From the NCBI GenBank assembly GCA_007125355.1, contig SLDG01000123.1:1-42518 (forward strand): a stretch of 42,518 nt of DNA, given 5' to 3'. Of the stretch, positions 424 through 31,604 are shown in pieces. The stretch is from Balneolales bacterium. GTDB lineage: Bacteria; Bacteroidota; Rhodothermia; Balneolales; Cyclonatronaceae. Position 1 is the stretch's first letter; every line of letters starts with the position of its first letter. The translations under genes and the position numbers were made by a program. The notes under the pieces are model-generated. The model was not told the origin of the DNA and did not search any database. It was given only the letters and a program-made list of their open reading frames with translations.

Positions 424-572
424 TGTGCGTCATGGGCAAAAATGGTTGATTTTGTTGTATTTAAAACAAGGTATTCGGGTTTGTCCTACCGTGCCTCGAT
501 TATCGGGGAGCGATGCGAAGACGAAGGGTTGGCATTAGTGGATTAAAAAGCACTCCTTGATAGTGCAGACAA

Positions 573-640
573 TCCTTCGGCGACGCCGATAGAACTATCT
601 AAACCTTTATAACATCTGGGCTCGGCTGCTCAGGATGACG
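573..640 (+). repeat. dispersed intergenic repeat, core module copy A (TCCTTCGGCGAC ... GCTCAGGATGAC)
   Basis: Aligns by eye over about 70 nt with the reverse complement of 19866-19936, and more loosely with 34068-34140. It shares two terminal boxes and has an internal stem (GCCGA/TCGGC). Confidence 0.6.
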
Positions 641-693
641 ATGCTTTTAAGAGAATACTTTTAAAACATTTATTACACATTACCCCACCGAAA

Positions 694-14006: not shown

Positions 14007-14215
14007 ATCCAAAAGTTTCGGGTGTTTTCAGTGTAATTCTGACTTAACTATTTTGCTCTTGCAAAACCATTGGAGGTTTGCATCAGCATATAAATTTCTA
14101 TGTAAAGATTCTAATATATCGTTTAAATCTTAACTTGGTAATATACGGATTTTTGGGTGGATTTGCGAGATTGCGATGGTGATATTGGCAGGTTTTCGTT
14201 TTGATGTGGTAGATG

Positions 14216-14243
14216 GTAGAGACGCGATTAATCGCGTCTCTAC
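14216..14243 (-). terminator. perfect 28-nt palindrome GTAGAGACGCGA-TTAA-TCGCGTCTCTAC (copy 2 of 2), probable terminator downstream of the VOC gene
   Basis: Perfect 12-bp arms. Begins 32 nt after the stop of the 14275-14655 gene on the minus strand. Same family as 396-423. Confidence 0.6.
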
Positions 14244-14274
14244 AGATACATATAAATGTATATATTTCAATTAT

Positions 14275-14655
14275 TTATGATTCATGGAATATTTCAATCA
14301 TATTCCCATCAGGATCGGTGATGAACACGAAACGTCCGTTTTTCCTGTTAGCAGGTCCGCTGATGATGGTTACCTCTCTTTCTTTCATGAAAGCGGCAAC
14401 TTCATCCACGATTTCCGGTTTTGGTACTGTAAATCCGAAATGATCTACTCTGTAGTCTCTTGATGTTTTATCATAGCTTGTTTCGGCTTCTACAAGCACT
14501 ATACTGTCGGTGCCGATTCTGTATACCGCCATGCTTTTACCCATTTTCTTTTCGAGTTTAAAGCCGAGTAAGTCCCCGTAGAATTCTTCTGCTTTTACAA
14601 TGTCATTTACGCGAAGCGTGATGTGATTTAATCCGGTTGGTTTAAAATTTTTCAT
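14275..14655 (-). CDS. VOC family protein (glyoxalase/bleomycin-resistance/dioxygenase fold)
   Basis: 126 aa. LNHITLRVNDIVKAEEFYGDLLGF and a C-terminal DPDGNMIE are typical VOC-domain motifs. Confidence 0.8.
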   Translation of the reverse strand: MKNFKPTGLNHITLRVNDIVKAEEFYGDLLGFKLEKKMGKSMAVYRIGTDSIVLVEAETSYDKTSRDYRVDHFGFTVPKPEIVDEVAAFMKEREVTIISGPANRKNGRFVFITDPDGNMIEIFHES

Positions 14656-14741: not shown

Positions 14742-15689
14742 TCATCTGATATCGTCTAAGGCATTGAGCAAGAACAACCTGAGAAATCTGTCGTTCCAGT
14801 GCCAGGTATGCTCTGCTTCGGAATGAAATGCTACACGGTTAAAACCTGCAGTGATGCCTGAGTCACGAAGTAAATCCACAAAGTATCGGGTTCTTTCGAG
14901 GTTACCCTTGTTACCATCAGCGGCAGCGCTTCTAACCCAAAAAGTAGTTTCAGAAAGCTCGTGGTAAGTTACCGGGTCTGCATTCTTTATCAGCTCAGTG
15001 GGATTCCAGTATCTTAGTGCTTGTGCCGTACGGTCTTCGGGTTTTCCCAATGCGGCATCAAAAACCGGGCTCTCGCACCAAATTGTATCTTTCTCACCGG
15101 TTCTGATATCAATTTGAGAATCATACATGTGCAGGCCATCATAGATACCAACATCATCGAAATAACCGGGCAAGCCGGCTGCGAGCATCGAAGCGGTATA
15201 TCCCCCGAGAGAAAATCCCGCTGTAAGGCGTTTCCCGTTTTGCAACCATTTGCCGTACCTGGCTTCTATGTATGGGATTAGCTCAAGCGTTAGGAAATCC
15301 CAAAACCTCCCGGTACCAAGACCCGCCCGCGGTTCAGGCAGATTTCCCATCATGTTGATTCCCAATGAATGCGTTTTATTGTCTATAGAGCATAAACCCG
15401 GCATTATTGCTGCTACAGGTGGAATCTTGCCACTTACGATTAATGCATCGAGATCTTCTATTGACGTTCTCTCACGGGATTCATCTTCGTCGATATTCAC
15501 CCACTCACGTTCATGCCCCCTGAAGAAATATGCCAAGTGTACCTCAGGCTGCTTCCTTAAATCAGGTGGTTCGTAAATAAAAACCGGCTGAGAAATTCCA
15601 AGTGACCTCGACCTGAACGGCAATAGTCTCAGGGCACCTTTTATCCGCGTTTTATGGCGGGCAAGGATATTCCTGTGAAGCGGAGTCAT
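14742..15689 (-). CDS. esterase-family alpha/beta hydrolase (esterase D / enterochelin-esterase-like, PF00756-type)
   Basis: 315 aa. The nucleophile elbow is GFSLGG and the C-terminal His context is EHTWHW. The start codon directly abuts the stop of the upstream gene (0-nt gap). Confidence 0.7.
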   Translation of the reverse strand: MTPLHRNILARHKTRIKGALRLLPFRSRSLGISQPVFIYEPPDLRKQPEVHLAYFFRGHEREWVNIDEDESRERTSIEDLDALIVSGKIPPVAAIMPGLCSIDNKTHSLGINMMGNLPEPRAGLGTGRFWDFLTLELIPYIEARYGKWLQNGKRLTAGFSLGGYTASMLAAGLPGYFDDVGIYDGLHMYDSQIDIRTGEKDTIWCESPVFDAALGKPEDRTAQALRYWNPTELIKNADPVTYHELSETTFWVRSAAADGNKGNLERTRYFVDLLRDSGITAGFNRVAFHSEAEHTWHWNDRFLRLFLLNALDDIR

Positions 15690-16556
15690 TTATCTTACGG
15701 GTTGAGCGGTTTCGAAAGCACCCGCTAATTCCGGCCTGTTTTCTTTAACAGCACGTTTAAGAAATCCGGGGATGACTGTTTTGTAAGTAGCATCGATATA
15801 CTGTGGCTTTTTAAGCCGCTCGATGATAATATCATATTTTTTCTGACCATGCTCTTCAATAATTTTAGCCTTTTGTTCCGGCTTACTGAAATGAAATAGC
15901 ATACCATCGGGGTCAGCTTCCGGATGAAACTGTACCGCTACCATTTGCTTTAATAGCCTTATGGCCATAACCGCCCGTTCCAGTTTTACATGCGGCCTTT
16001 CTTTTTCAATACAAAGAATTTGAGCACCCATTTCGTCCATCAGGTCTTTTCGTGGTTGTAAAACCTGCCATTCTCTGAAATCAGCGGCATAAAATGGATC
16101 TTTCAGGCCTTCAAACAAAGGGTCTGATTTACCGGCTTCTGTTTTATTTACTTTATACATTCCAAAGGCTGGAGAACGCCTTTCAGTAACTTCAGCAAAC
16201 TCAAAATGCCTTGCAACCATCTGATAAGAGTGGCAAATAAAAAGTCCGTACTTAGGTGGTTGACTTTTACCGGCATTGTAACGCCACAAATCATCCAGAA
16301 AATTGAAGTAGTTTTTCTCCCATGTAAGCCCCTCGCTGTCGAACGGGCTTCCTGGCCCGCCGGTTGAGATGTAAATATCGTATGATAGATCGGGGATTTC
16401 ATTTTTGTATCGGGCTTGATACACATTAAATTCAATGGGTACATTAAAATAAGCGCCTGAAGCATCTGCAAGCAGGTTTTTTATGCAGCGCATTCCTTGA
16501 TTCGGGATATTATTGTATAAATCAATAATTGCTGCTCTAATGGGTTTTGGTGTCAT
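15690..16556 (-). CDS. class I glutamine amidotransferase-like protein (possible gamma-glutamyl/amide hydrolase)
   Basis: Cys nucleophile lies in GLFICHSYQ (Cys codon 16233-16235), and His-Glu in VQFHPE. The ATG at 16556 is 4 nt after the upstream stop. The longer ORF-track start (16601) overlaps the upstream gene and adds a non-homologous Cys-rich tail. Confidence 0.7.
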   Translation of the reverse strand: MTPKPIRAAIIDLYNNIPNQGMRCIKNLLADASGAYFNVPIEFNVYQARYKNEIPDLSYDIYISTGGPGSPFDSEGLTWEKNYFNFLDDLWRYNAGKSQPPKYGLFICHSYQMVARHFEFAEVTERRSPAFGMYKVNKTEAGKSDPLFEGLKDPFYAADFREWQVLQPRKDLMDEMGAQILCIEKERPHVKLERAVMAIRLLKQMVAVQFHPEADPDGMLFHFSKPEQKAKIIEEHGQKKYDIIIERLKKPQYIDATYKTVIPGFLKRAVKENRPELAGAFETAQPVR

Positions 16557-16560
16557 CTTC

Positions 16561-17916
16561 TTATAGGTATCTGCAAATAAACATGGGCATGCTTCCGCCA
16601 CCGGCCGTTACGTTAGCAAGATTATTAAATGAGGTTCGGGTTAAACACCCCCCCATCAACGGTCCGTTGAGATAGGGGTCTAAGTCAATAATAGTTTCTT
16701 TTTGAGTCCAATTGTCTTCTATATTTAAGATAAAAGGTTCTTTCCCAATATCAATAACTTCCTGTACTACAAAATCATTCTTTAGTGCATGCTCAATAGC
16801 ATCATCCCACTCAGATTGTGAGCACTGAAAACCAAGTACAACACCATGGCCACCATAGTCATCGTTTGGTTTGAGGATGAAACTATCTTTATATCTTCTG
16901 GCTGACTCAACTAAATTTATAACCATTCCTCTGTAGCGTTCTTTCGATTCCCTGAATTTCCTTGTCCATGGAATGTGGGTTCTGATGGCTTTAATTTCAG
17001 CGTTATCGAGCACTTTCATGTAATATGGGTCGGTCAGAAGAGAAAACAGGTTTTTCTTGTGCACTAACTTTGACCTGAAAGAATTAAGATAACACGTTTT
17101 TTGTGCATGATATCCTTCGAGATATGCCTTACACTCATCAATAATCTCAAAAAATTCATTCATCAAAAGACGCCTATAGAGGATGTCGATTTTCTTTCCA
17201 TTCGCGTAAATCCAGCCGTCTTTGCATTCCAGTTCTCTGGGATCGCAAATCTCGCATACATGCCCTTTTCGGTTCAGGTATTCTTTGATTAGCACAAATT
17301 CGTTGTACGTGGGCACATTCAAAAAATCAACAATAGCGAATGAGGGCAACTCTTCCTTTCCGCAAAATTCTTCGTGATACACCCTGGTTAAACCATCGAA
17401 TGTATGCTCAAGCGGAGATACGAATCTTGTTGGAAATGTTTTTTCAAACTCCTGAAATACCGGCAGCTTTTGATAGATTTTTGCCATCTCGTGCACATAA
17501 GCAATACCCGCCGGAACCTCTGCATTTAGTTCTACAAATCTGAAGGAGGTATCGGTCAAAAAGGCGTCCATTCGCGCTGTAGCCGATAAACGAATAACAT
17601 TTGTGGGGATGGCACAAAGCTGGATTTCCAGGTCAGTAAGCCCAAGCAGGTTAAGCGTTTTTCTGTCGTTAAAAAAAACCGCCGCGATTTTCAAAATGGC
17701 CTGCCTGAGAATATAAACTGTATCCTGGATGTATTGATACGTTTTTTCTCCCAGAAACATGGGCCTTAGAGAAGCTGTAAGCGGCCTGCCGCCAAATGTT
17801 GTGCCTTGCTGCTTTTGCAGTTCGAGTAACATTTGCAACTGCTCTTCAGATGCACTGAGATTATCTGATATCAGCTGGTTATAATGATCAACCGCGTGCC
17901 TGGTGTGCTTAAGCAT
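16561..17916 (-). CDS. glutathionylspermidine-synthase-like / circularly permuted ATP-grasp superfamily amidoligase
   Basis: 451 aa. RMDAFLTDTSFRFVELNAEVPAG resembles the R.D...(K)..E.NADTP motif of the GSP_synth/CP-ATP-grasp families. SKLVHKKNLFSLL and FILKPNDDYGGHGVVLG match later family motifs. The start overlaps the upstream gene by 8 nt. Confidence 0.55.
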   Translation of the reverse strand: MLKHTRHAVDHYNQLISDNLSASEEQLQMLLELQKQQGTTFGGRPLTASLRPMFLGEKTYQYIQDTVYILRQAILKIAAVFFNDRKTLNLLGLTDLEIQLCAIPTNVIRLSATARMDAFLTDTSFRFVELNAEVPAGIAYVHEMAKIYQKLPVFQEFEKTFPTRFVSPLEHTFDGLTRVYHEEFCGKEELPSFAIVDFLNVPTYNEFVLIKEYLNRKGHVCEICDPRELECKDGWIYANGKKIDILYRRLLMNEFFEIIDECKAYLEGYHAQKTCYLNSFRSKLVHKKNLFSLLTDPYYMKVLDNAEIKAIRTHIPWTRKFRESKERYRGMVINLVESARRYKDSFILKPNDDYGGHGVVLGFQCSQSEWDDAIEHALKNDFVVQEVIDIGKEPFILNIEDNWTQKETIIDLDPYLNGPLMGGCLTRTSFNNLANVTAGGGSMPMFICRYL

Positions 17917-18850
17917 CAGGTTCCAGCGCTCCGTTCGCTGTAAACTGTAGTGTTTTCTTCTTCGCTTTCGATTTACTTACCGCATATTTGGCAACATGTT
18001 TTACGACCCAGTCGAAGTTTTCGGCGCCAACTGAATAATAATCAGCATCCGGGGCCGGATTCATAAAGTCGATTGCATAAGGCACTCCATCACGAACCGC
18101 GAACTCTACAGTGTTCATGTCGTAGCCAAGAGCTTTACAAATGGCGATGATGTCTTTTTCCATCTTCTTAAGCAGTTTAGGCGATGTAGGCTCAGGATTT
18201 ACATCAAAATACCTGCGATGCGGCTCAGCGCCCGGATTGTATTTCATAATTTTGGTGTACTTGCGGCCAATGCCGTAACAACGATAGTAATCCTCAAATT
18301 CGATCCCCTCTTGCAGCATCATACATAAATCACCGGATTCGTTGTAGGCATCAAAAAACTCATGGGGATTATTGATTTTGGTCACATCCCGCCATCCGCC
18401 GCCATCATGCGGTTTCAGGAAACATGGGAATCCCACATATTCAAAAATTCCTTCCCAATCGATCGGGTATTTTAAGTTTCTGAAAGAATTTGATTCTGTG
18501 TTTGGCGGATGCTGTTTGTGCGGCAAAATCACCGTTTTTGGTACGGCAACACCTGCATTCTCAGCAATAATATTATCTATAAACTTATCATCAGCACTCC
18601 ACCAAAACGGGTTGTTGATGACAAATGTGCCCTTTAGTGCAGCCCACTTCAGGTAGGAGCGGTAAAACGGTACTTCGTGCGAAATTCTGTCAATAATCAC
18701 ATCATAGCTGGGGTCTGCATCCATATTCACAGAGTCGATTTGAACAAACTCGGCGTGTACACCCTGCTCACCGTATTCTTCATTAATATGCTGTACCAAT
18801 GCATCCGGGAATGTTGTTTCCATTCCTCTGATAATTCCAATTTTCTTCAT
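17909..18850 (-). CDS. ATP-grasp ligase (RimK/GshB-like fold)
   Basis: Has FLKPHDGGGWRDV (phosphate-binding loop), MLQEGIEFEDYYRCYGIG, and VEFAVRDGVPYAIDFMN (Mg-binding E..N). I prefer the ATG at 18850 (MKKIGII), which is preceded by AAAGAGG. The ORF-track start at 18910 overlaps the upstream gene by 34 nt. Confidence 0.65.
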   Translation of the reverse strand: MKKIGIIRGMETTFPDALVQHINEEYGEQGVHAEFVQIDSVNMDADPSYDVIIDRISHEVPFYRSYLKWAALKGTFVINNPFWWSADDKFIDNIIAENAGVAVPKTVILPHKQHPPNTESNSFRNLKYPIDWEGIFEYVGFPCFLKPHDGGGWRDVTKINNPHEFFDAYNESGDLCMMLQEGIEFEDYYRCYGIGRKYTKIMKYNPGAEPHRRYFDVNPEPTSPKLLKKMEKDIIAICKALGYDMNTVEFAVRDGVPYAIDFMNPAPDADYYSVGAENFDWVVKHVAKYAVSKSKAKKKTLQFTANGALEPDA

Positions 18851-18876
18851 ATCTGACCTCTTTAGGTTTTTAAGTG

Positions 18877-19590
18877 TTACGGTAGGTGTTTTAGTATCAT
18901 TCTGCGCCACTCGTGCCAGTCATGTATTACGCCCGGACTCCAGACATCGAGCTCGTACCAAATTCCTTTGCTATATAGAATATCACAAAAATAACGAGTT
19001 GCATCAAGGCAAATATCATGATCGCCGGCAACAAAGCGTAAATCTACACGGCGAATCGCCTCCAGGTGATTGTGGTCGTTCATATTAGGCATGTAGTCAA
19101 CAGGATTATTGAAGTACACATTGTCATCATAATGGCCATTAGTAAATGCCCTGATGTCGTATTTTCCACTCATTGCAATCAATTTACCAAAATACCAGGG
19201 GTGTTTTAATGCCATGTTACATGCATGATAAGCACCAAAACTGGCCCCCGTTGAAATCAGAAACCTATTTGGGTTATTATTGTAGATGAAAGGGATGACT
19301 TCATCTTTAATATAGGCTTCATATTGGCTGTATCGAGCAAAACGAGTAAACGGATCCACGGATTTGTTGTAGAAGCTTTCGCCATCAACAGAGTCAACGC
19401 AGTAGAATTGGTTGAAGCCATTTTCTATCTGATGGCGAACCGTGTCTATCATGTGGAAGTCTTCCCACTCATAAAAGCGCCCCATACTTGAAGGAAAAAC
19501 AAGAACCGGCGCTCCTGCATGTCCAAAAACCAGCATTTCCATTTCTCTGCCCAAACTGGGACTCCACCATTTTACAAATTGTCTGTGCAT
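18877..19590 (-). CDS. esterase-family alpha/beta hydrolase (PF00756-type), first gene of the operon
   Basis: 237 aa. The nucleophile elbow is GASFGA and the C-terminal motif is IHDWHEW, paralogous in style to the 14742-15689 product. Confidence 0.65.
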   Translation of the reverse strand: MHRQFVKWWSPSLGREMEMLVFGHAGAPVLVFPSSMGRFYEWEDFHMIDTVRHQIENGFNQFYCVDSVDGESFYNKSVDPFTRFARYSQYEAYIKDEVIPFIYNNNPNRFLISTGASFGAYHACNMALKHPWYFGKLIAMSGKYDIRAFTNGHYDDNVYFNNPVDYMPNMNDHNHLEAIRRVDLRFVAGDHDICLDATRYFCDILYSKGIWYELDVWSPGVIHDWHEWRRMILKHLP

Positions 19591-19787
19591 ACGCTATTTT
19601 TGCTTATTATTAAATTAAAGGAAGTTACAGAGGGATTTTTATGCTGAACGAGGCTAAAATTAGCACTCCAGTTTTACCGGCAAAAGTCCCCGCAAGCCGA
19701 TTTTCGTAAAGTTTTTAAGTAACAATTAATTAACCAACAAAAGTACGCCATTTTCTGGATTAAGGAAACAAGAAAGATTTTGAATAT

Positions 19788-19796
19788 GGGGGGGGG
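19788..19796. repeat. G9 homopolymer tract in an intergenic region
   Basis: ATGGGGGGGGGCAGC: nine consecutive G read directly from the sequence. Confidence 0.9.
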
Positions 19797-19865
19797 CAGC
19801 AAATCTAATTTGTTACTGATGCGGGCTCCTTGTTTGATCTGCAGAATTGAAATAATGTAAAGCCT

Positions 19866-19936
19866 CGTCACCCAGAGCAGCCGAGCCCCGATGCTTATAC
19901 TAAGTGTTCTTAAGTTGTCTCGGTGTCGTCGGAGGG
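19866..19936 (-). repeat. dispersed intergenic repeat, core module copy B (inverted relative to copy A)
   Basis: The reverse complement reads CCCTCCGACGACACCGAG...GGGGCTCGGCTGCTCTGGGTGACG. It is collinear with 573-640 and has an internal stem CCGAG/CTCGG. Confidence 0.6.
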
Positions 19937-20285
19937 TTAGTTGATAAGGCTTTAGTGCGTTCACGAATTGTGCAGACGCTCCTTCGACTTTGCAGCGGAT
20001 AAATTTCATAAACAATGGCTTACAACCCAAGCAGTCGCTCCGCTCTTTTATATTCAGGATAACTACTTACACTCGGCGGTTTCTGAACTCTAAATACTGG
20101 TTACTTTACAAATAAACAGTTAAACGAATAAACAAATCCCCCACATCGCCATCGTCCAATCTTTTTGGAGTTTATTGTCTGCGGTGGTATTTTTTCGTTG
20201 CTTAATTTAAAATCATTGCATTTGTGCGTTAGCAATTACCGGGATTACTATCAGATGCATTTTCTTTAACTACATCGTTTTATAT

Positions 20286-21242
20286 ATGGAGTCAGTAATA
20301 AACAACTTAGCTTCACCGGTAGTTTTGGCCTTTGTGCTTGGTATCGTTGCCAAACTCATCAAAAGCGACCTCGATTTTCCGCGACCCCTTTACCAGTCAA
20401 TTTCTATTTACTTGTTGTTGGCCATTGGTTTAAAGGGCGGTGTTGAACTTAGCAAGACTCCTTTTAGTGAATTTTTAGGGCCTGCTTCCGCGACCCTTTT
20501 TCTGGGGGTACTTACCCCGCTAATTGCATTTGCAATTCTTCGGTATGTGGGCAAATTCGATATAACAAACGCGTCTGGTATTGCTGCCCATTACGGCTCC
20601 GTTTCGGTTGTAACGTTCATTGCAGCAATCAGTTATGTGCAGGCTCTCGGTCTTGAACCTGAGGGTTTCCTGCCAACTCTTGTAGCTATTCTTGAAGTAC
20701 CTGGCATAGTTGTGGCTCTGCTTATTCCCATCTTGATTGAGAAGAAAAAAGGAACGCTAAAAAAAGCCATGCATGAAGTTTTGACCGGCAGCAGTATTGT
20801 TTTACTTGTAGGAGGCTTGATAATAGGATTTGTTGTAGGTCCCACAAAATTTGAAAGCGTAGAGTTGTTTTTTGTGGGCGGTTTCCAAGGTGCGCTATTT
20901 CTGTTTTTACTGGAATTGGGGATGATTACTGCAAGCCGCTTGCGTGACTTAAAGAAAGTGGGTGCATTTCTTGTTGGGTTTGGTATTCTTGTGCCTATCT
21001 TGCATGGGTTCCTGGCAGTTATAATAGGAATGTGGGCCGGATTAAGTGTAGCAGGTGCAACTGTTTTTGCTGCAATGGTTTCCAGTGGTTCATATATCGC
21101 CGCACCGGCAGCGGTACGTATTGCACTACCTAAGGCCAATCCTACGTTGTATCTTACATCATCACTTGGAATTACATTCCCGTTCAATATTGCACTGGGA
21201 ATTCCATTGTATTACATTATAGCAAATTGGTTCGGAGGATAA
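20286..21242 (+). CDS. sbtA: sodium-dependent bicarbonate transporter family permease (SbtA-like, DUF897/Sbt_1)
   Basis: 318 aa polytopic membrane protein whose N-terminus (LASPVVLAFVLGIVAKLIKSDL.FP) has the SbtA-family style. Immediately followed by an SbtB-like PII gene. The symbol is by family resemblance only. Confidence 0.65.
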   Translation: MESVINNLASPVVLAFVLGIVAKLIKSDLDFPRPLYQSISIYLLLAIGLKGGVELSKTPFSEFLGPASATLFLGVLTPLIAFAILRYVGKFDITNASGIAAHYGSVSVVTFIAAISYVQALGLEPEGFLPTLVAILEVPGIVVALLIPILIEKKKGTLKKAMHEVLTGSSIVLLVGGLIIGFVVGPTKFESVELFFVGGFQGALFLFLLELGMITASRLRDLKKVGAFLVGFGILVPILHGFLAVIIGMWAGLSVAGATVFAAMVSSGSYIAAPAAVRIALPKANPTLYLTSSLGITFPFNIALGIPLYYIIANWFGG

Positions 21243-21243
21243 C

Positions 21244-21546
21244 ATGAGTTTAGTAAATTTAAAACTGGTCACCATCGTTTCTGAGCGCATCCTTAAAACC
21301 CAAATGGTAGAGCACATCGTTGAATGCGGCGCCAAAGGATACACCATGCTGGAGGCAACCGGAGAAGGTTCAAGAGGCATTCGCGCGAGTGAGTTTGAAG
21401 GCAGAAATGTCAAATTTGAGATTATTGCCAGCAGCGAGGTCGCTGAAAAGATATTTCAGAAAATAAAATCTGAGTATTTCGAAAATTACGCCGTAATTGT
21501 GTACTCGCAGGATGTACAGGTGGTACGGGGGGATAAATATATCTGA
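21244..21546 (+). CDS. sbtB: PII-like signalling protein, SbtB type
   Basis: 100 aa. KLVTIVSERILKTQMVEHIVECGAKGYTM, GEGSRGIRAS, NVKFEII and EYFENYAVIVY parallel cyanobacterial SbtB as I recall it (KLVIVTEKILLKK..ESGAKGYTV, GKGSRNVRSS, NIKFEIL, KYFNDYAGIIY). GGAGGA lies 5-10 nt upstream, and the ATG is 1 nt after the sbtA stop. Confidence 0.75.
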   Translation: MSLVNLKLVTIVSERILKTQMVEHIVECGAKGYTMLEATGEGSRGIRASEFEGRNVKFEIIASSEVAEKIFQKIKSEYFENYAVIVYSQDVQVVRGDKYI

Positions 21547-29725: not shown

Positions 29726-30577
29726 TCAGCGAATAATTGCTTTTACAAAGTTAGGTAACGCAAAAGAGCCGATGTGTATTTCCTTATTGTAGTACTTCAA
29801 TTCTTTCCCAAAAGTTTCATGCGCAGCACCAACACGCTGCATGACTTCATCTGAAATGGGCTCAATCCCTTTACTGGCAAACATCATAGACCACATTCCG
29901 GTTGGGTAAAGCGGGATAAACGCGAGAAACATTTCTGTTACAGGATACAGCTCGTTGCAAGCACCAAATACACTCTTAATACTTTCGTGATAGCTTTCTA
30001 CAAAGGGGCTTTCTGTTTGAGATACCAAAACGCCATTGTCTTTAAGGCTACGATGACATTTTTCGTAGAAATCTTTCTTGAACAAATCTACTGCGGGGCC
30101 AACAGGGTCAGATCCATCAATGATAATTACATCGTACTCAGCTTCAGGACCATCAACAAATGTCAAACCGTTTTCGTAGAGCACATTTAATTTGGGATTT
30201 TCGAAATCGCCCACATCAGGCATGTGCAGTTTAGATGCCCTGACCACAGCCTCGTCGATTTCGACCATATCCACTTTTTTAACAGAGTGATGCTTGAGTA
30301 CTTCTCTGGCTGTACCTCCGTCGCCTCCGCCGATAATTAAAATACTCTCGGGCTTGGGATGCGAAAACATAGCCACATGCGCCATCATTTCGTGGTACAC
30401 GAACTCATCTCTCTCAGAAAGCATAACCATTCCGTCTATGGTCATTAAATTGCCCCATGTATCGGTCTCAAACACCTCTACAAGCTGGTAAGGTGTCTGC
30501 TCGTGGAAAAGCTGCTTTTTCAGGCCTACAGTAAGGCCGGTTTGTTCGTTGTAATATTCGTTGTACTGAATGGGCAT
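29726..30577 (-). CDS. speE: spermidine synthase (polyamine aminopropyltransferase)
   Basis: 283 aa with ILIIGGGDGGTAREVLKH, VEIDEAV and IIIDGSDPVGPA motifs. Confidence 0.92.
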   Translation of the reverse strand: MPIQYNEYYNEQTGLTVGLKKQLFHEQTPYQLVEVFETDTWGNLMTIDGMVMLSERDEFVYHEMMAHVAMFSHPKPESILIIGGGDGGTAREVLKHHSVKKVDMVEIDEAVVRASKLHMPDVGDFENPKLNVLYENGLTFVDGPEAEYDVIIIDGSDPVGPAVDLFKKDFYEKCHRSLKDNGVLVSQTESPFVESYHESIKSVFGACNELYPVTEMFLAFIPLYPTGMWSMMFASKGIEPISDEVMQRVGAAHETFGKELKYYNKEIHIGSFALPNFVKAIIR

Positions 30578-30655
30578 GGTTATAAAAATTAAGTCAGTGT
30601 AAAAGCAAAACGGGTAGGAATATCGAGCCCCTGAAATTAACTAATCTTAGTGAAA

Positions 30656-30682
30656 CCTTGTGTCTTTGTGTCTTCGTGTTTC
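30656..30682. repeat. GTGTCTTTGTGTCTT-motif element (second locus)
   Basis: CCTTGTGTCTTTGTGTCTTCGTGTTTC. Its 15-nt core (30660-30674) is identical to 10030-10044. Lies in the 128-nt gap between pdaD and speE. Confidence 0.7.
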
Positions 30683-30705
30683 ATTTAAAACTATTGAAAA
30701 AGGGA

Positions 30706-31188
30706 TTATTTATACCAAAGCACAGCTGCAGCAAAAACCGTAGCAATTTTTTCTACTTTATGCTCAACGCCAATAGTAAGTATTTCACGATATTTCCGCT
30801 TTCTGTATGCATATCCGTCAACAACCATTTGTTTAACAATAGCTTCTACATCAGCAAGCGGTTTGGTATCTTCAAATTCCATAATAAGACCGGGTTCATC
30901 AGGGTTTTCCGGGAGTCCTACTCCGATAGCTGCAGAAATAATTTCACCGGGGTTTTCAGAGGTGATGCCCGCGTAAGCAATTGGTATAAGTGCCCCTTTG
31001 GGTAATTCAATATGGTCTACCAATTCGCAGTTAGGTGGAATAATACTGCTCATACGAATCAAATTCGTATCTCCTACGCCCGCTTTGAGCAATGCGTTAT
31101 CAAAGGAGTTTAATTTCGTCGGCCCTTCTTCTGCACCCTTTACAAGAGAGAAAATCTCAGGGTTTTGAACCATCATGTTATTTGTCAT
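30706..31188 (-). CDS. pdaD: pyruvoyl-dependent arginine decarboxylase
   Basis: 160 aa. The self-processing motif NLIRMSSIIPP (Ser47-Ser48, codons 31045-31050) matches the PdaD Ser-Ser cleavage site. Confidence 0.85.
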   Translation of the reverse strand: MTNNMMVQNPEIFSLVKGAEEGPTKLNSFDNALLKAGVGDTNLIRMSSIIPPNCELVDHIELPKGALIPIAYAGITSENPGEIISAAIGVGLPENPDEPGLIMEFEDTKPLADVEAIVKQMVVDGYAYRKRKYREILTIGVEHKVEKIATVFAAAVLWYK

Positions 31189-31190
31189 AT

Positions 31191-31604
31191 TTAGTTACTC
31201 ATACTAAAATTTGGTGCATCTTTCGGTTTAAAAAGCAGTTCTTGTCCTTCTTCTACTTTAAACATCCCACGCTTCATCTCCATACTCGAAACATTTTTGG
31301 AGTTAAAGCAATCTTTAAGATGTTCTTGAATTATCCAGGGGTCTATGGTTTCACCACAGGTAAATATATCTACGGCAGCATATCCGTACTCGGGCCAGGT
31401 ATGGATAGCAATATGCGATTCTGCTATAACAACAGTACCACTCACACCATGGGGACTGAACTTGTGAAAATTATGTGATATGATGCTGGCACGCGATTTT
31501 CTTGTGCCTTCAAGTAATATAGATTCGATTTGTGCAACATCGTTGATTACATCCTGATCACAATCATAGTACTCAACCAGAACTTGTCTTCCAAGAGCTT
31601 GCAT
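31191..31604 (-). CDS. speH: S-adenosylmethionine decarboxylase proenzyme (small bacterial/archaeal type)
   Basis: 137 aa. VVIAESHIAIHTWPE carries the canonical Glu62-Ser63 autoprocessing site. The RBS AAGAGGAG lies at 31611-31618 (minus strand). Confidence 0.9.
   Translation of the reverse strand: MQALGRQVLVEYYDCDQDVINDVAQIESILLEGTRKSRASIISHNFHKFSPHGVSGTVVIAESHIAIHTWPEYGYAAVDIFTCGETIDPWIIQEHLKDCFNSKNVSSMEMKRGMFKVEEGQELLFKPKDAPNFSMSN

Follow-up and report, generated by a model that had tools for sequence, protein, structure and literature searches.

A five-gene ligase and hydrolase operon from a Balneolales bacterium appears to be an undescribed variant of a modular amide-ligase system

Introduction

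What would a bacterium build, and take apart again, with two different ATP-dependent ligases, an amidotransferase-like protein and two serine hydrolases encoded back to back? The question is raised by five consecutive minus-strand genes, here called E1, AG, CP, GAT and E2 in their order of transcription (Table 1), in a 42,518-nucleotide stretch of DNA from a Balneolales bacterium (contig SLDG01000123.1, assembly GCA_007125355.1; hereafter the window). Operons that link several ATP-dependent amide ligases are a route to glutathione-like cofactors, storage peptides and some antibiotics that bypasses ribosomes and nonribosomal peptide synthetases (NRPS). An initial annotation of the window, made from the sequence alone, had proposed that the five genes build and recycle an amide-linked molecule and had recognized no described system in their order. 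We find that they form one operon, that the cassette recurs in the same order in distant phyla and that it belongs to a modular family of gene clusters that is represented in the window by one variant. The general idea that the operon assembles and recycles an amide-linked molecule is still the most convincing reading.

A conserved five-gene operon

The five genes constitute a single operon, a reading that rests on their tight or overlapping junctions and on the recurrence of the cassette amid unrelated flanking genes. E1 and AG are separated by 26 nt, which on the reverse complement contain an AAAGAGG ribosome-binding site 7 nt ahead of the ATG of AG. AG and CP overlap by 8 nt (ATGCTTAA, read directly), CP and GAT are spaced by 4 nt, and the stop codon of GAT abuts the start codon of E2 (TAAATG, 0 nt). 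The single unit claimed from junctions of +26, −8, +4 and 0 nt thus stands as first described. The longest mechanically called open reading frames (ORFs) of AG and GAT begin further upstream at GTG codons (position 18910 for AG), and we favor the ATG starts because they fit the lengths of the orthologs, which are 311-320 aa for AG and 274-289 aa for GAT. None of the five N-termini carries a visible signal peptide, and all five proteins appear to be cytoplasmic. In scans for sigma-70 promoters and intrinsic terminators, sites were no more frequent than in shuffled sequence.

Table 1. Position and size of the operon genes and of the two features that follow them in the window
Feature	Position	Strand	Size and remarks
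E1, PF00756 "putative esterase" serine hydrolase, first gene of the operon	18877-19590	−	237 aa
AG, classical ATP-grasp ligase	17909-18850	−	313 aa, counted from ATG
CP, circularly permuted ATP-grasp ligase, CP_ATPgrasp_2/1-like	16561-17916	−	451 aa
GAT, stand-alone class-I glutamine-amidotransferase-like protein	15690-16556	−	288 aa, counted from ATG
E2, second PF00756 serine hydrolase, accessory member	14742-15689	−	315 aa
VOC / glyoxalase-fold protein	14275-14655	−	126 aa; PF00903, 74.6 bits; 86 nt downstream of E2
Perfect 12-bp hairpin, GTAGAGACGCGA-TTAA-TCGCGTCTCTAC	14216-14243	−	32 nt past the VOC stop codon; direct reading

A genome scan limited to one genome per species returned at least 598 loci encoding a relative of CP. 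Eighty of these were fetched, and six window proteins (the five operon products and the neighboring VOC protein) were mapped onto them and onto loci fetched later; individual loci are cited below by their L numbers. The complete order E1-AG-CP-GAT-E2 is present in the window, in 10 of the genome loci and in L081 and L083. A further five loci have E1-AG-CP-GAT, and three have AG-CP-GAT with or without E2. The hosts of E1-AG-CP-GAT(-E2) comprise Balneolia, Rhodothermales, Chitinophagales, unclassified Bacteroidota, Salinibacteraceae, KSB1 and one metagenome-assembled genome (MAG) of Thermoanaerobaculaceae. Beyond the five genes, these loci have nothing in common except among close relatives, and the cassette therefore moves as a unit. 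The same order in dozens of unrelated contigs with differing flanks confirms that the arrangement is far beyond chance, and the conservation across phyla that the initial annotation had asked for extends well past its close relatives.

Sister architectures and the extent of the system

Outside the Fibrobacterota-Chlorobiota-Bacteroidota (FCB) group, CP homologs of about 40% identity are followed by a gene of 370-385 aa from the GCS2 family; hosts include Acidobacteriota, an Obscuribacteraceae MAG and a MAG labelled Proteobacteria. This partner matches PF04107 with an E-value of 1e-58 and the NCBIfam model NF010039 ("carboxylate-amine ligase") with 542 bits against a cut-off of 371, and it adjoins CP homologs in at least 30 loci. 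The order E1-AG-CP-GCS2 is intact in L031 and L051 and is also seen in L087. A search with the GCS2 protein of L013 led to an 11.2-Mb genome of the same layout and to Herpetosiphon llansteffanensis (Chloroflexota), where a helix-turn-helix gene precedes AG-CP-GCS2. L013 itself carries E1-AG-CP-GAT together with a convergent GCS2 gene.

A GAT-centered scan of metagenomes revealed a third layout, E1-AG-GCS2-GAT-G1, in which GCS2 lies ahead of GAT (about 20 loci) and a gene that we call G1 follows it (34 loci). Since GAT and GCS2 occur together both here and in L013, we rejected the idea that they are mutually exclusive substitutes. G1 encodes a protein of about 395 aa with no Pfam match (for example L096:890-2071, L097:6847-8043 and L103:6838-8010, plus 31 further metagenome loci). 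Its C-terminal 100 residues align to the CP family, VLKPLFSFAGxGV against ILKPNDDYGGHGV (hhalign E 0.009), and its profile weakly matches Escherichia coli YgiC (PDB profile E 0.03). Judged by these weak resemblances, G1 is probably a very divergent and so far unrecognized family of circularly permuted, CP-type ATP-grasp enzymes. In six loci (L097, L112, L131, L134, L136 and L137), the GAT-G1 pair adjoins an M42 glutamyl aminopeptidase. A LuxE-like acyl-protein synthetase is adjacent in the same six loci, where AG, GCS2 and E1 are absent, and a weak UbiA-like ORF is also found in L097 and L112.

Taken together, the architectures describe a modular system with E1 and AG at the front, one or two further ligases (CP or G1, and GCS2), usually GAT, and variable hydrolases at the end. 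Across the system, up to three amide ligases are encoded, namely AG, CP or G1, and GCS2. No GCS2 gene is present in the 42-kb window, which thus holds the variant without it. The five genes of the initial annotation hold as an operon, but not as a complete inventory: by the evidence of the sister architectures a YbdK-type GCS2 belongs to the system, and E2 is accessory, since it is missing in many loci. About half of the FCB-type loci have E2, and even the close relative L089 lacks it. An M28 peptidase gene downstream of GAT in some Rhodothermales was considered as a further member and rejected, given its signal peptide, variable distance and only local synteny.

As a separate observation, the GCS2 protein of L013 (L013:10184-11338; Thermoanaerobaculaceae, Acidobacteriota) is 70-83% identical to GCS2 proteins of Herpetosiphonaceae (Chloroflexota). 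An identity this unusually high between phyla points to the module having been transferred horizontally or else being under very strong constraint.

The classical ATP-grasp ligase

AG is the most conserved protein of the cassette, with at least 8000 homologs and 66-74% identity across the phyla of the FCB group. A profile search gave it no Pfam match, and its score against rimK_fam (TIGR00768), 30.6 bits, is weak relative to the cut-off of 143.4, which places it outside RimK proper. The superfamily is clear from its AlphaFold2 (AF2) model, which has a mean predicted local distance difference test (pLDDT) score of 80.1: at E≤1e-3 it has 488 matches to ATP-grasp enzymes in the PDB, and the residues expected for ATP binding (Lys) and Mg binding (acidic/Asn), namely K146, E249, D261 and N264, are invariant among the orthologs. 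In Foldseek comparisons, MdnB/C, ArgX/LysX, Ddl/VanA and RimK are matched about equally, with template modeling (TM) scores of 0.55-0.65, the top single match being the macrocyclase AMdnB. The original description of AG as a RimK/GshB-type ligase is therefore right as to the ATP-grasp fold, but not as to GshB: because several ATP-grasp families match about equally well, the model describes a generic, divergent RimK/LysX/Ddl-like ATP-grasp that is not specifically GshB-like.

The C-terminus of AG (window 17909-17950) consists of a basic linker followed by a conserved QF[TS]ANGxLEP tail, which reads QFTANGALEP in the window. We compared this region in L001, L002, L004, L012, L016, L081, L083, L084, L088 and L089. 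The tail is W[DS]xxLNP in orthologs from GCS2-type clusters of other phyla, and QWSGKI or QWAPNV in a few FCB orthologs from loci without E2. AF2 predicts it to be disordered (pLDDT <50), and a partner enzyme may dock on it.

The circularly permuted ligase

The second ligase, CP, had been assigned to the superfamily of glutathionylspermidine synthase (GspS) and circularly permuted ATP-grasp enzymes. That assignment survives as a likeness to the CP_ATPgrasp_2/1 families and to the glutathione synthetase/GspS fold, but not for GSP_synth as a sequence family. CP scores 29.8 bits against PF14403 (CP_ATPgrasp_2), just below the gathering score of 32; 11 of 12 CP orthologs match the same model at E<0.01 (best E 9.3e-13), and many CP homologs carry a precomputed match to it. 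Against PF04174 (CP_ATPgrasp_1), CP reaches 23.2 bits, with a gathering score of 23.1. PF03738 (GSP_synth) gives no match to CP at E<0.01, and PF03738 and PF03917 are each matched by one ortholog of the 12 at E-values of about 4e-4 (3.4e-4 for PF03738). By sequence, then, CP ranks as nearer to CP_ATPgrasp_2/1 than to GSP_synth. The motifs R-x-D...E-x-N-A-x-x-P and KP..YGG.G are conserved, with R115, D117, E129, N131, P135 and K349 invariant among the orthologs, and the set of CP homologs numbers 3144 in a collection of 5.8 billion proteins, the closest of them assigning the window to Balneolales/Cyclonatronaceae.

A single-sequence search of the PDB with CP gave nothing useful, and a sequence profile matched only entry 3n6x, a "putative glutathionylspermidine synthase" (E 2.7e-8). 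The AF2 model of CP is of moderate confidence (pLDDT 73.6), with two predicted substrate-lid regions below 50. In the PDB it comes closest to glutathione and homoglutathione synthetases of the eukaryotic type (Foldseek E 5e-10 to 1e-7, TM 0.52-0.58, about 440 columns), followed by the fungal E-64 ligase Cp1B and then by YjfC, YgiC and GspS (E 6e-5 to 3e-4 for these three). Sequence identity to these fold matches (the glutathione synthetases, YjfC, YgiC and GspS) is only 9-14%. The predicted fold of CP is closest to that of the eukaryotic-type glutathione synthetases, which the model matches over its full length at 9-13% identity.

The amidotransferase-like protein and the esterases

Profile matches, the presence of the motifs first quoted for these proteins and the invariance of catalytic residues among orthologs bear out the enzyme superfamilies and intact active sites of the initial annotation. 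GAT scores 23.3 bits against PF00117, just over the gathering score of 22.8, and weakly matches the NCBIfam models PRK07567 and PRK09065 for stand-alone GATases. The residues C108, H211 and E213 expected of a class-I amidotransferase are invariant in 19 orthologs, as are the motifs SGGPGSP and QFHPE. The nucleophile elbow reads F-I-C-H-S, in place of the usual G-x-C-x-G. These features would suit one of two roles, hydrolysis of an amide or gamma-glutamyl bond or donation of ammonia as a subunit. Wherever we find it, GAT adjoins a ligase (CP, GCS2 or G1), coming after CP in the FCB-type loci and after GCS2 in the third architecture.

E1 and E2 match PF00756 with 31.4 and 36.9 bits, respectively (gathering score 22). 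In E1, S117 (in GASFG), D192 and H223 are invariant in 21 orthologs; in E2, S160 (in GFSLGG) and H294 are invariant in 12. The nearest solved relatives of E2 are feruloyl esterases (E 2.6e-8) and IroE-like hydrolases, and neither E1 nor GAT has a significant sequence match in the PDB. E1 lies immediately upstream of AG in all three architectures.

Genomic surroundings

Downstream of the operon, the VOC gene is followed by grpE, dnaJ and a gene for a thioredoxin-like lipoprotein. The VOC protein has sub-threshold matches to Fos-type thiol transferases and glyoxalase I. Its gene lies where the initial annotation placed it, but as a part of the system we rejected it: it adjoins the cluster in L088 and L089, whose CP proteins are 80-82% identical to that of the window, and not in Cyclonatronum or any other locus. 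It is a lineage-specific neighbor that is possibly co-transcribed with the operon. The hairpin beyond the VOC gene may mark the end of the transcription unit; it has no following T-run and was not called by the consensus terminator scan. In L088 (L088:10636-12522), hrcA lies between the VOC gene and grpE, and in the window there is instead a 262-nt gap between these two genes (14013-14274) with no hrcA, inside which the hairpin falls.

Upstream and divergent from E1 are genes for an SbtA-type Na+/bicarbonate transporter and an SbtB-like P-II protein (window 20286-21546; compare L089:3065-4993). A beta-carbonic anhydrase gene is found nearby in relatives; L088 lacks the transporter pair and has the carbonic anhydrase gene immediately before E1. 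Polyamine genes about 10 kb away had also been pointed out, and they are real: spermidine synthase (SpeE), pyruvoyl-dependent arginine decarboxylase (PvlArgDC) and AdoMet decarboxylase (AdoMetDC) are encoded at 29726-31604, 10-12 kb off. We rejected a functional link, as this trio is not co-located with the cluster in relatives.

We looked for RNA elements and for a small substrate protein. Rfam models gave nothing at the gathering threshold in the whole window and nothing at E≤1 in 19500-20400, and on this basis we rejected a riboswitch or other known RNA in the 695 nt that precede E1. The window contains no tRNA, and PADLOC returned no defense-model match for any of the six proteins. No conserved small ORF that could encode a precursor or carrier lies upstream of the operon; the 58-aa ORF of Cyclonatronum is matched neither in the window nor in the other loci. 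This agrees with the initial annotation, which saw no precursor-peptide ORF, transporter or regulator in the cluster, and none is conserved across the loci. Between E1 and the next gene upstream, some 85 nt of intergenic sequence (19859-19938, minus strand) are roughly 76-81% identical to another intergenic stretch 19 kb away (571-647, plus strand). The two share the core GGGCTCGGCTGCTC.GG.TGACGA.GCTTT and have no Rfam match; they may represent a small RNA or a short element present in repeated copies.

Proposed function

ATP-grasp and glutathione-synthetase-fold ligases act through acyl-phosphate intermediates. We propose that the operon encodes the form taken in the FCB group by a modular amide-ligase system, cytoplasmic and independent of ribosomes and NRPS, and that it builds and turns over a small glutamyl-type peptide or peptide-amine conjugate; we regard this as an even bet. 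AG and CP would each use ATP to convert a carboxylate to an acyl-phosphate and then couple it to an amine, and, acting in succession, they could yield a small oligopeptide or peptide-amine conjugate, probably with glutamate. In other phyla, a YbdK-type GCS2 would add a third ligation; here, that enzyme may be encoded elsewhere in the genome or be absent. GAT could strip a gamma-glutamyl or other amide-linked group, in the manner of PuuD, gamma-glutamyl hydrolase or the amidase domain of GspS, or it could deliver glutamine-derived ammonia to an acyl-phosphate. E1 and the accessory E2 may hydrolyze an ester, thioester or amide bond in the product or an intermediate, and the hydrolases together would provide for built-in trimming and turnover. 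It has been noted that operon-linked ATP-grasp and other COOH-NH2 ligases usually perform successive ligations toward peptide metabolites or cofactors (PMC4431377).

The operon structure, the family and fold assignments, the intact catalytic residues and the modular synteny are observed; which substrates are used, in what order they are joined and what results is inferred. Glutamyl chemistry is hinted at by the GCS2 family, by the rimK-like signal of AG, by the GATase fold that GAT has in common with PuuD and gamma-glutamyl hydrolase, and by the M42 linkage, all of them indirect. Several points weigh against the proposal. Two ligases alongside three hydrolase-type genes are unusual for a purely biosynthetic pathway, and across loci the cluster has no conserved companion among transporters, regulators or riboswitches. 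In about 34 loci of the Blastocatellia type, a CP homolog of about 40% identity stands alone beside unrelated genes, so not every member of the CP family works within a cassette. The structural neighbors of AG include RimK, LysX/ArgX and MdnB/C, which act on proteins or peptide carriers, and the cross-phylum identity of AG would also fit a conserved macromolecular substrate. None of the results pinpoints a substrate; the thiol, polyamine conjugate and siderophore named in the initial annotation would be candidate products.

The points concerning AG lead to a different explanation, the main rival, in which AG and CP add amino acids to the C-terminal or side-chain carboxylate of a conserved protein and E1, E2 and GAT erase them, in a reversible modification of a protein or peptide tail. 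Besides the protein- and peptide-acting enzymes that the AG model resembles, the very high conservation of both AG and CP across phyla is in its favor, as is a set of ligases and hydrolases typical of writer/eraser pairs, and the conserved, disordered tail of AG could serve as the docking peptide. We nevertheless consider a protein substrate unlikely, if credible. Neither a conserved small ORF nor a gene for a carrier is found inside or beside the cluster, the rimK_fam score of AG is far under the cut-off, and the closest folds to CP are small-molecule ligases; to our knowledge, the partner family GCS2 is likewise known only for small-molecule ligation (YbdK, EgtA).

Two further readings also involve a small product, and to each we assign a low probability. 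The first is an amidated di- or tripeptide serving as a compatible solute, following the logic of N-acetylglutaminylglutamine amide (NAGGN), where an ATP-grasp enzyme would make the peptide and GAT would act as an amidotransferase on a carboxylate activated by CP or GCS2. That GAT retains all class-I GATase motifs (SGGPGSP, the nucleophile Cys and QFHPE) and is always beside a ligase suits such a role, for which Ngg/AsnO, CarA/CarB and MurT/GatD are precedents; many hosts, judged by record titles, are halophiles, thermophiles or soil bacteria of dry habitats. Yet its F-I-C-H-S elbow departs from G-x-C-x-G, two esterases fit poorly, nothing in the neighborhood suggests osmoregulation, and no transporter is linked. 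The second, which seems similarly doubtful, is that the cassette together with GCS2 makes a new low-molecular-weight gamma-glutamyl thiol or peptide-amine cofactor, analogous to glutathione or glutathionylspermidine, that would serve Rhodothermota, Balneolota, Bacteroidota, Acidobacteriota, Chloroflexota and Melainabacteria. E1 would then hydrolyze a thioester or ester of this cofactor, GAT would be the amidase, and the lineage-specific VOC protein would be a cofactor-dependent enzyme of the glyoxalase-I/Fos type. Least probable is a catabolic or salvage route that ligates an amine or peptide with ATP (for example by Puu-like gamma-glutamylation) and then degrades it with GAT and the esterases: a glutathione-synthetase-like ligase with a GATase-fold hydrolase does mirror PuuA/PuuD, the window has more hydrolases than ligases and some loci join GAT-G1 to an M42 aminopeptidase, but there is no consistent linkage to an oxidase, dehydrogenase, aminotransferase or uptake system, and two or three distinct ligases exceed the needs of catabolic tagging.

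Whichever product is made, the cassette, with its strongly conserved enzymes, has been retained by hundreds of species that span at least six phyla and are for the most part little studied. The cassette also provides a concrete set of genomic partners for the YbdK/GCS2 "carboxylate-amine ligases", whose physiological role has, as far as we know, been open for about two decades. Identification of the product could reveal a new and widespread metabolite or cofactor, or a protein modification, and could supply new ligases for biocatalysis.

Relationship to known systems

The ligases recall several characterized or predicted pathways, and we compare them here with each in turn. The likeness to the ligases of glutathione and to bifunctional glutathionylspermidine synthetase/amidase (GspSA) lies in the fold and motifs of CP, in the membership of its partner GCS2 in the Glu-Cys-ligase-2 family and in the pairing of a ligase with a candidate amidase that has a Cys nucleophile. 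However, the candidate amidase here has a GATase-I fold rather than a CHAP domain, and the low identity of CP to these enzymes is accompanied by nothing that points to cysteine, glycine or spermidine as substrates. RimK, which poly-glutamylates ribosomal protein S6, and the LysX/ArgX-LysW amino-group carrier systems resemble AG in fold (TM 0.57-0.65) and in the weak rimK_fam match, but no S6, LysW-like carrier, RimA/RimB or lysine/arginine biosynthesis gene is found in any neighborhood. Graspetide clusters of the microviridin type come to mind from the top Foldseek match of AG, and the esterases could in principle open omega-ester cross-links. Unlike those clusters, the cassette has no conserved precursor ORF and shows a housekeeping type of conservation across phyla, and the MdnB match is no better than those to Ddl, LysX and RimK.

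With the predicted CP_ATPgrasp_1/alpha-E/transglutaminase peptide-tagging system, CP has in common a match to PF04174, at its gathering threshold. The Pfam-annotated neighborhoods of nine loci contained no alpha-E, transglutaminase or NTN-hydrolase genes. The pathways that the initial annotation had named as possible homes for the ligases do not, in sum, account for them: AG is far below the RimK cut-off, no precursor ORF accompanies the cassette, and alpha-E and transglutaminase neighbors are missing.

A different kind of parallel is Cp1B (PDB 9cjn), which is among the fold matches of CP (E 1e-7, TM 0.48). It is described as an ATP-grasp enzyme of the fungal, NRPS-independent pathway to E-64, a small amide-linked molecule made by successive condensations (PMC12568646). 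Cp1B differs in being eukaryotic, in having 14% identity to CP and in working with other partner enzymes.

The closest counterpart is a computational prediction. Iyer, Abhiman, Burroughs and Aravind, writing in Mol Biosyst in 2009, are said to have predicted in silico a neighborhood of CP-ATP-grasp-2, GCS2, an alpha/beta-hydrolase, an amidohydrolase and a peptidase that makes small peptides. The Pfam text for PF14403, citing that paper, reportedly describes this association, with Roseiflexus RoseRS_2616 as the prototype and links to a GCS2-like ligase, an alpha/beta-hydrolase peptidase, a GAT-II-like amidohydrolase and an M20 peptidase. Our survey arrived independently at a linkage of the CP family to GCS2 and a PF00756 hydrolase, including in Chloroflexota, where AG-CP-GCS2 with or without E1 fits that description; the M42 peptidase linked to GAT-G1 belongs to the M20 clan. 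Linkage to both GCS2 and a hydrolase is thus present among CP homologs, and in the window itself only the hydrolase linkage is found. The window further differs in having a class-I GATase rather than a GAT-II-like protein, an additional classical ATP-grasp (AG) and two PF00756 esterases, and in lacking GCS2. The first impression that this gene order matches no described system is accurate in that no experimental work on any variant and no paper on the cluster came to light in the searchable literature, and it needs the qualification that a similar neighborhood has reportedly been predicted. The system does not form a new category, yet it occurs widely, has intact enzymes and is open to direct testing, and the layout in the window appears to be an undescribed variant of this computationally predicted multi-ligase system.

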